Assembly: GCF_036507355.1 (NCBI RefSeq)
Contig: NZ_AP027877.1
Reading direction: 5' to 3' (one strand)
DNA from: Escherichia coli
GTDB lineage: Bacteria; Pseudomonadota; Gammaproteobacteria; Enterobacterales; Enterobacteriaceae
Length of the DNA stretch: 64,000 nt
The translations under genes and the position numbers were made by a program. This document shows, in pieces, positions 19,041-20,683 of this stretch (its first letter is position 1; the number at the start of each line of letters is the position of its first letter). The notes beneath the pieces were generated by a model, which did not search any database, was not told the DNA's origin, and saw nothing but the letters and a program-made list of their open reading frames with translations.

Positions 19041-19529
19041 TTAGCGAACTACCGCGTTGTCAATTTTCTCTTCCGCCTTCCAGACGCGGTACTTCACATC
19101 TACATTGTCTGGCGTATACACCACGATCGGCAGCTTGCTGTTGTAACGCAGCATTCCAGCATCGCCCAGATACGCGGTGACAAATTTCTTCTCTTTCTTG
19201 CCATCCGGGCAGGCCATCATCGTGGAAACCGGCGAGCTAACTTTATCAAAGACATAATAATCATAGCCCCAGCCTTCCAGCGTTTTGTTTTCCAGCTTCC
19301 CGCCGAGACGATGCAAATTGCAATCGACTTCCAGCGTCTGACCGATTAACAGTTCTACTTTCAGGGTAGATTCATCTTCTTGCGGGGTTAACTGAATCAC
19401 CTGACGCTTCATGCCTTTTTCAGCTTGTGGATAAGGCGCGATTTTTTCCAGTGGCTGGACGCTCTCTGCCGCCCAGGCGGAAGTGGTGGCGAAAGCGGCA
19501 AACAATACTGCAGGTAGAATGGTCTTCAT
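19041..19529 (-). CDS. eco: ecotin, periplasmic serine protease inhibitor (162 aa)
   Basis: ORF track; signal peptide and characteristic ecotin sequence. Confidence 0.93.
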
Positions 19530-19787
19530 TTTTTGCTTTCCTTCTTCATTTATAGGTTTGCACCGATGATGTCGCTGAAGGTTAACATATTCATCAGATT
19601 TATTAATTTGCTTTATGAATAACTTAAAGAATATTCAGACAATTTTACCTGCTCTTTTAGTGTTAAATTCTGATGAGAGAACAAACCAGCAGAAATATCT
19701 CTGGTGAATTAATCGCTATATAAATATATTTATAACCATTTGAAATGTGAGCAAAAGCCCGTTTTTGCCACGCTTCCCGCCACTCTT

Positions 19788-19822
19788 TTGATCCTGCTAC
19801 AGGTTTTACCTCGATCGGGGTA
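19788..19822 (+). promoter_or_regulatory. napF promoter control region: degenerate FNR-like site (TTGAT-N4-CTACA, 19788-19801) and NarP/NarL 7-2-7 heptamer pair (TACCTCG-AT-CGGGGTA, 19807-19822)
   Basis: Motifs read directly; the two centres are 20 bp apart, as expected for the known -64.5/-44.5 napF architecture. Confidence 0.55.
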
Positions 19823-19935
19823 TGCATCTTTGACACATCCTTTAATATCTTAGCGGCTATAAAAATGGCTTATTAATTATGCGGTTTATTTGGTCGCTCT
19901 CAATTTTCAGAGCGCGTTAATGATGGAAGGTCAAT

Positions 19936-20430
19936 GTGAAGATTGATGCATCCCGTCGGGGCATACTCACTGGTCGCTGGCGCAAAGCCAGTAACGGTAT
20001 CCGTCCGCCCTGGTCCGGTGATGAATCTCATTTTCTGACCCATTGCACCCGCTGCGACGCCTGTATTAATGCTTGTGAAAACAACATTCTGCAACGCGGC
20101 GCGGGCGGCTATCCGAGCGTTAATTTCAAAAATAACGAGTGCAGCTTCTGTTACGCCTGCGCGCAGGCTTGCCCCGAATCGCTATTTTCTCCGCGCCACA
20201 CCAGGGCCTGGGATTTGCAGTTCACCATTGGGGACGCGTGCCTGGCGTATCAGTCAGTTGAATGCCGCCGCTGTCAGGATAGCTGTGAGCCAATGGCAAT
20301 TATCTTTCGCCCGACGCTCTCCGGGATCTACCAGCCGCAACTTAATAGCCAACTTTGCAACGGATGTGGAGCATGTGCAGCCAGCTGTCCGGTATCAGCC
20401 ATAACTGCGGAGTATCTCCATGCACACTAA
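19936..20430 (+). CDS. napF: ferredoxin-type protein NapF (164 aa)
   Basis: ORF track; multiple CxxCxxCxxxCP 4Fe-4S motifs. Confidence 0.92.
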   Translation: MKIDASRRGILTGRWRKASNGIRPPWSGDESHFLTHCTRCDACINACENNILQRGAGGYPSVNFKNNECSFCYACAQACPESLFSPRHTRAWDLQFTIGDACLAYQSVECRRCQDSCEPMAIIFRPTLSGIYQPQLNSQLCNGCGACAASCPVSAITAEYLHAH

Positions 20431-20683
20431 CTGGCAAGTTTGCAGCCTGGTCGTGCAGGCCAAAAGCGAACGAATTTCAGACATCAGCACCCAACTGAAC
20501 GCCTTTCCCGGCTGTGAAGTTGCTGCCAGCGACGCGCCGAGCGGTCAGTTGATTGTGGTGGTGGAAGCAGAAGACAGCGAAACGCTGATCCAAACCATTG
20601 AGTCAGTACGCAACGTAGAGGGCGTGCTGGCGGTGTCGCTGGTTTATCACCAGCAGGAAGAGCAAGGTGAGGAAACACCATGA
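20420..20683 (+). CDS. napD: NapA chaperone NapD (87 aa)
   Basis: ORF track; overlaps napF end and napA start. Confidence 0.9.

Follow-up and report, generated by a model that had tools for sequence, protein, structure and literature searches.

The DNA between eco and napF in this stretch is, with a probability of about 0.95, the control region of napF (napFDAGHBC, periplasmic nitrate reductase) from an O157:H7-type E. coli, and its architecture is that of the K-12 promoter. We met no evidence running counter to this reading. The feature is already known, and recognizing it is a correct but ordinary find: since the 1990s, napF has served as a textbook case of class I FNR activation combined with co-activation by NarP and antagonism from NarL, and its recovery carries little weight as a discovery. 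It does illustrate that real regulatory architecture can be recovered from sequence by a reader without tools. The analysis also contributes some small additions, namely that architecture and spacing are unchanged in three enterobacterial genera, that the NarP/NarL site of the O157 lineage is a variant compatible with the consensus, and that the annotated gene yojO, which overlaps the regulator sites, is probably no real gene.

The napF locus and its K-12 counterpart

Both the NarP/NarL site and the FNR site lie in the eco–napF intergenic region (406 bp), approximately 115–150 bp upstream of the napF start codon, with napF downstream according to both the open reading frame (ORF) list and the RefSeq annotation (Table 1). 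A megablast search of complete E. coli genomes with 19530–19940 of the window (the whole 64 kb stretch of DNA that was analysed) returns 100% identity to O157:H7 strain TR01 and a match in 5,421 of 5,426 genomes, where the segment is annotated as yojO and napF. Judged by its sequence, the window is E. coli O157:H7-like. The gene order napA–napD–napF, yojO, eco is the same in the K-12 MG1655 record, and alignment of the intergenic region with MG1655 gives 99% identity. Only one mismatch with K-12 falls between 19786 and 19940, that is, from the FNR site through to the napF start codon; the remaining differences are a few substitutions farther upstream, at 19560–19715. In NC_000913.3 coordinates, window position x becomes 2303497 + (19936 − x).

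For conservation, we used an alignment of nine sequences: the window, K-12 and seven orthologous loci taken from a NapF scan of species-representative genomes (a divergent E. coli, E. albertii, four Citrobacter and Leclercia adecarboxylata), a sample that covers Escherichia, Citrobacter and Leclercia.

Table 1. Features of the eco–napF region in window coordinates, with promoter positions counted from a putative +1 at 19859
Feature	Position	Strand	Remarks
eco (ecotin)	19041–19529	−	From the ORF list
yojO, annotated small ORF	19663–19827	−	Overlaps the ModE, Crp-like, FNR and NarP sites
ModE-type operator palindrome, CGCTATATAAATATATTTATAACC	19714–19737	+	Centre 19725.5 (−133.5 relative to 19859)
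Candidate Crp site, TGTGAgcaaaagCCCG	19746–19761	+	Centre about −105.5; left half perfect, right half poor
FNR site TTGAT-cctg-CTACA (TTGATCCTGCTACA; TTGATcctgCTACA)	19788–19801	+	Centre 19794.5 (−64.5); class I, right half degenerate
NarP/NarL 7-2-7 inverted heptamer pair TACCTCG-AT-CGGGGTA (TACCTCGATCGGGGTA)	19807–19822	+	Centre 19814.5 (−44.5)
Single-base difference, T here and C in K-12	19811	+	Position 5 of the left heptamer
TAATAT, putative P2 (minor, upstream) −10	19843–19848	+	Start about 19856; 3 bp upstream of TATCTT
TATCTT, putative P1 (major) −10	19846–19851	+	−13 to −8 relative to 19859; invariant in 9/9
Putative P1 start	19859	+	Calculated from sites at −44.5, −64.5 and −133.5; equals NC_000913.3 2303574, minus strand
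napF 5′ leader, 77 nt	19859–19935	+	Shine–Dalgarno GGAAGG; ATGGAAGG invariant
Alternative FNR match, TTGGTCGCTCTCAA	19890–19903		In the napF leader; 8/10, centre about +38.5 (about +32 to +45)
napF CDS	19936–20430	+	GTG start, 164 aa, ferredoxin-type ORF; napD and napA next
napD	20420–20683		Downstream of napF; 87 aa ORF match
napA	After napD		828 aa ORF match

The NarP/NarL and FNR sites

Scanning with the degenerate 7-2-7 pattern TACYYMKNNMKRRGTA returns one match in the 64 kb window, at 19807–19822, and none in 100 shuffles. The preliminary description, made from the letters and an ORF list, had taken these 16 bp for a NarL/NarP heptamer pair; the sequence is as it was read there, unique in the window and with no chance occurrence. 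Its placement of the pair at −44.5 agrees with the published napF site, given as −40 to −49 and so centred on −44.5 (PMC4549865). napF is one of the four classical 7-2-7 promoters, sites of this kind being present also at nirB, nrfA and fdnG (PMC2718512). Across the nine sequences and three genera of the alignment, 13 of the 16 columns are invariant (TACC.C.AT.GGGGTA).

The one base that separates the promoter core from K-12 lies inside this site, whose left heptamer reads TACCTCG in the window and TACCCCG in K-12. With C at the counterpart of 19811, the K-12 site is a perfect 16-bp palindrome, TACCCCGATCGGGGTA, which the T breaks. Queries with 75-bp core alleles (window 19786–19860, and the K-12 segment corresponding to window 19787–19861) divide the 5,421 matching genomes into 4,950 of the K-12 type, 441 of the window type and about 30 others, the listed examples of window-allele genomes being O157:H7 or VTEC strains. 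TACCTCG is therefore an O157-lineage allele of the left heptamer, a point that the preliminary description overlooked. A T occupies the same position in E. albertii and Leclercia.

Loss of the perfect palindrome in a minority allele could be read as a change of function, such that the O157 promoter behaves unlike that of K-12, for example with a shifted NarP/NarL balance. We regard this as quite improbable, given that the heptamer consensus TACYYMT (the pattern used in the window scan) has Y at this position and so allows C and T alike, that the T is found naturally in the two relatives just named, and that every promoter element other than 19811 is unchanged with respect to K-12. The preferred reading remains a K-12-type control region with a permitted variant base; the binding data brought to bear on it below are all for K-12, with C at the counterpart of 19811, and not for the O157 allele.

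The FNR site is centred exactly 20 bp upstream of the 7-2-7 centre (19794.5 and 19814.5), and the earlier reading of TTGAT-N4-CTACA at that distance is exact, as can be seen directly in the letters. Scored against the FNR consensus TTGAT-N4-ATCAA, it agrees at seven of ten positions, five of five in the left half and two of five in the right. As a motif alone, the site is statistically unremarkable: with up to three mismatches allowed, the window holds 342 matches where 251 are expected, and some 0.5% of positions match as well as this one. The call exceeds chance only because its position is fixed beforehand by the published layout and because conservation and ChIP data coincide with it. Darwin et al. 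in 1998, and Stewart and Bledsoe in 2005, reportedly placed the FNR site of napF at −64.5.

ChIP peaks given on U00096.2 were carried over to the window by way of U00096.3, using a shift that we take to be approximately 1,977 bp (about 1,975–1,979), and this conversion adds some ±2 bp of uncertainty to every mapped peak. Within that tolerance, the K-12 FNR ChIP-seq/ChIP-chip peak labelled ‘napF/yojO’ at 2301669 (Myers et al. 2013, Table S5, PMC3688515) falls at approximately 19787, about 7 bp from the centre of the FNR site; the same study counts napF among the FNR-bound promoters that NarP co-activates. Under this peak, PatSer scores reach ln p = −5.37 at best, compared with −16.5 for nirB and −13.3 for narG (PMC3688515, Table S5), a value near the weak end of bound sites and consistent with a degenerate FNR site. 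The site is neither a consensus FNR site, with both halves near consensus and the PatSer ln p ≤ −10 of strong bound sites, nor a class II site, with FNR near −41.5 and overlapping the −35: its centre lies 64.5 bp upstream of the putative start, and it is the 7-2-7 site that takes up the region around −41.5.

The preliminary description had singled out the weak right half as notable. The weakness itself is real and conserved, the right half in relatives reading CTACA, CAACA or CTACT (usually CAACA, weaker still), with three of five columns invariant and never near ATCAA; as an observation, it is an old and known feature of this promoter and not a notable one.

The degeneracy of the site raises the alternative that TTGAT at 19788 is a chance half-site and that FNR works through a better one. 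The match in the napF leader is indeed nearer the consensus, with two mismatches against three, and 7/10 matches often arise by chance. We give this alternative almost no credence. The FNR peak maps some 110 bp away from the leader match but within about 7 bp of the −64.5 site; the right half of the leader match is not conserved in the divergent E. coli and E. albertii (CTCTG) and is missing from Citrobacter, in contrast to the invariant TTGAT at 19788; and FNR at +38 would repress rather than activate. The match at 19890–19903 is likely a chance one, and we retain the site at −64.5 as the FNR site of the promoter.

Promoter elements and upstream regulators

The preliminary description had set sites at −64.5 and −44.5 against a +1 of 19859, and its arithmetic is correct. 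A P1 start at 19859 would fit three observations: the position of TATCTT, the centre of the ModE-type palindrome and an anaerobic sigma-70 ChIP-seq peak. The last of these, labelled ‘Anaerobic’ and given for K-12 at 2301577 on U00096.2 (Myers et al. 2013, PMC3688515), maps to approximately 19879, which is about +21, or some 20 bp downstream of 19859. A generic sigma-70 scan finds no plus-strand promoter at the napF region, a null result that is to be expected and is not counter-evidence, because the promoter is activator-dependent and has a poor −35 (TGCATC). We also considered the perfect TTGACA at 19830–19835 as a −35 and rejected it: the spacing is 7 bp to TAATAT and 10 bp to TATCTT, and the hexamer is unconserved outside Escherichia.

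TATCTT and TAATAT would serve as the −10 hexamers of P1 and P2, respectively; their 3-bp offset matches the roughly 3-nt distance between the P1 and P2 5′ ends of napF that Stewart et al. are said to have described in 2003. In the alignment, TATCTT is invariant, while Citrobacter and Leclercia have AAATAT in place of the P2 hexamer, which suggests that P1 alone is broadly conserved. Having two promoters may thus be a trait of Escherichia only. A literature search found no single-nucleotide start-site data for the napF locus, and the locus has no entry in the accessible portion of the Cappable-seq supplement text. A napF fusion spanning −85 to +19 is described in another report (PMC9262595).

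Farther upstream, the pattern CGNTATATA-N6-TATATANCG, with up to three mismatches allowed, has its sole window match at 19714–19737 (two mismatches; 0.12 matches expected), and this ModE-type palindrome is conserved in Escherichia and Citrobacter. McNicholas and Gunsalus reportedly placed the ModE site of napF at −133.5 in 2002; the palindrome is centred at exactly −133.5 when +1 is 19859, which supports the coordinate frame. Stewart et al. are likewise said to have reported, in 2009, a Crp site farther upstream than those of FNR and NarP, and we tentatively assign 19746–19761 to it. Compared with TGTGA-N6-TCACA, this candidate has three mismatches, a level at which the window holds 193 matches against 222 expected, not above chance; the block AAATGTGAGCAAAAGC, with its Crp-like half-site at 19746–19750, is conserved in Escherichia and Citrobacter. 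Together, the palindrome and AAATGTGAGCAAAAGC upstream of the FNR site are consistent with published ModE and Crp control of napF.

Activation of nap by ModE and its repression by IscR are on record (PMC8139620). Just downstream of the putative start, at 19864–19888 on the minus strand, there is an IscR type-2-like match with two mismatches. It is the sole such match nearby, the window as a whole holding 143 against 130 expected, which is not above chance, and it would be a lead at most for the reported IscR repression of napF.

An IHF ChIP-chip region is given for K-12 at 2301191–2301646 on U00096.2 (Myers et al. 2013, PMC3688515). It corresponds to 19810–20265 in the window, where it overlaps the 5′ portion of napF as well as the promoter and its NarP site. 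The regulators of napF in Table S9 of that study are listed without IHF (PMC3688515).

Conservation, regulatory scheme and napF leader

Conservation in the nine-sequence alignment follows the elements of the promoter. TTGAT is invariant at all five columns in all nine sequences of Escherichia, Citrobacter and Leclercia, and AATATCTTA is invariant as well. The mean major-allele frequency is 0.63 in the upstream flanks and 0.93–1.00 in the sites. No sequence has a gap anywhere from the FNR site to the −10 region, and thus three genera share both the 20-bp spacing and the distance to the −10. The stretch that separates the NarP site from the −10 (19823–19842) is unusually conserved, with 14 of 20 columns invariant, including ACACATCC.

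It is conceivable, if unlikely, that something besides recognition by FNR or sigma-70 maintains the FNR right half (C-ACAG) and the invariant ACACATCC, for example overlap with the site of a further regulator (IscR, say) or a DNA shape required for FNR–NarP synergy at the unusual 20-bp spacing. Separately, and in the same speculative vein, the C-to-T change at 19811 could retune NarP/NarL competition.

Conservation of the stretch might instead be ascribed to coding on the opposite strand, RefSeq annotating yojO over exactly these coordinates in K-12 and in most E. coli genomes. Such an origin is extremely improbable: the yojO frame has in-frame stops in each of the seven orthologous loci of the alignment, from the divergent E. 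coli to Leclercia, and yet the regulator sites are invariant in these same sequences; moreover, conservation is clustered in motif blocks and is not codon-like. Because the frame is broken by stops in the orthologues, we read the conservation as regulatory rather than coding, and yojO is probably not a genuine conserved gene.

In K-12, activation of napF by FNR and NarP and its antagonism by NarL are established. Carried over to the window, that knowledge would have an FNR dimer occupy the degenerate site at −64.5, in a class I position, under anaerobiosis, while nitrate or nitrite would bring phospho-NarP to the 7-2-7 heptamer pair at −44.5. Together, FNR and phospho-NarP would synergistically activate the major promoter P1, with its poor −35 and its −10 TATCTT; the minor promoter P2 would start approximately 3 nt upstream of P1. 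Phospho-NarL, by binding the same 7-2-7 site, would antagonise NarP, giving a peak of nap expression at low nitrate. Further control would come from ModE, probably Crp, and IscR. Activation by FNR with NarP-P, and competition from NarL-P, are also described in a published account of napF (PMC9262595). Which protein would bind which site in the window we infer or take from the literature.

The closest comparison is K-12 napF with its P1 and P2: locus, element order and spacing are the same, the 75-bp core is identical save for one base, and the K-12 FNR and sigma-70 ChIP peaks coincide with elements of the promoter in the window. The napF promoter of Haemophilus influenzae, as reportedly described by Stewart and Bledsoe in 2005, has FNR at −81.5 and NarP at −42.5, with NarL said not to antagonise. 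By that account, it likewise places a class I FNR site upstream of a NarP 7-2-7 site that overlaps the −35, with synergistic activation, but at a reported FNR–NarP spacing of 39 bp as against 20 bp here. nirB, nrfA and narG, which combine class II FNR with NarL/NarP, have anaerobic and nitrate/nitrite inputs in common with napF. They differ in that their FNR sites are near-consensus and at −41.5, with NarL/NarP upstream; napF has the two in the opposite order, and the best FNR PWM score under its ChIP peak is weak.

Two further points concern the napF transcript. A review records an interaction of the sRNA ArcZ with napF mRNA, detected by RIL-seq (PMC8139620). At 19881–19907, the leader contains GCGGTTTATTTGGTCGC and, after it, a T-rich run, together resembling a terminator hairpin whose stem is only partly conserved in Citrobacter.
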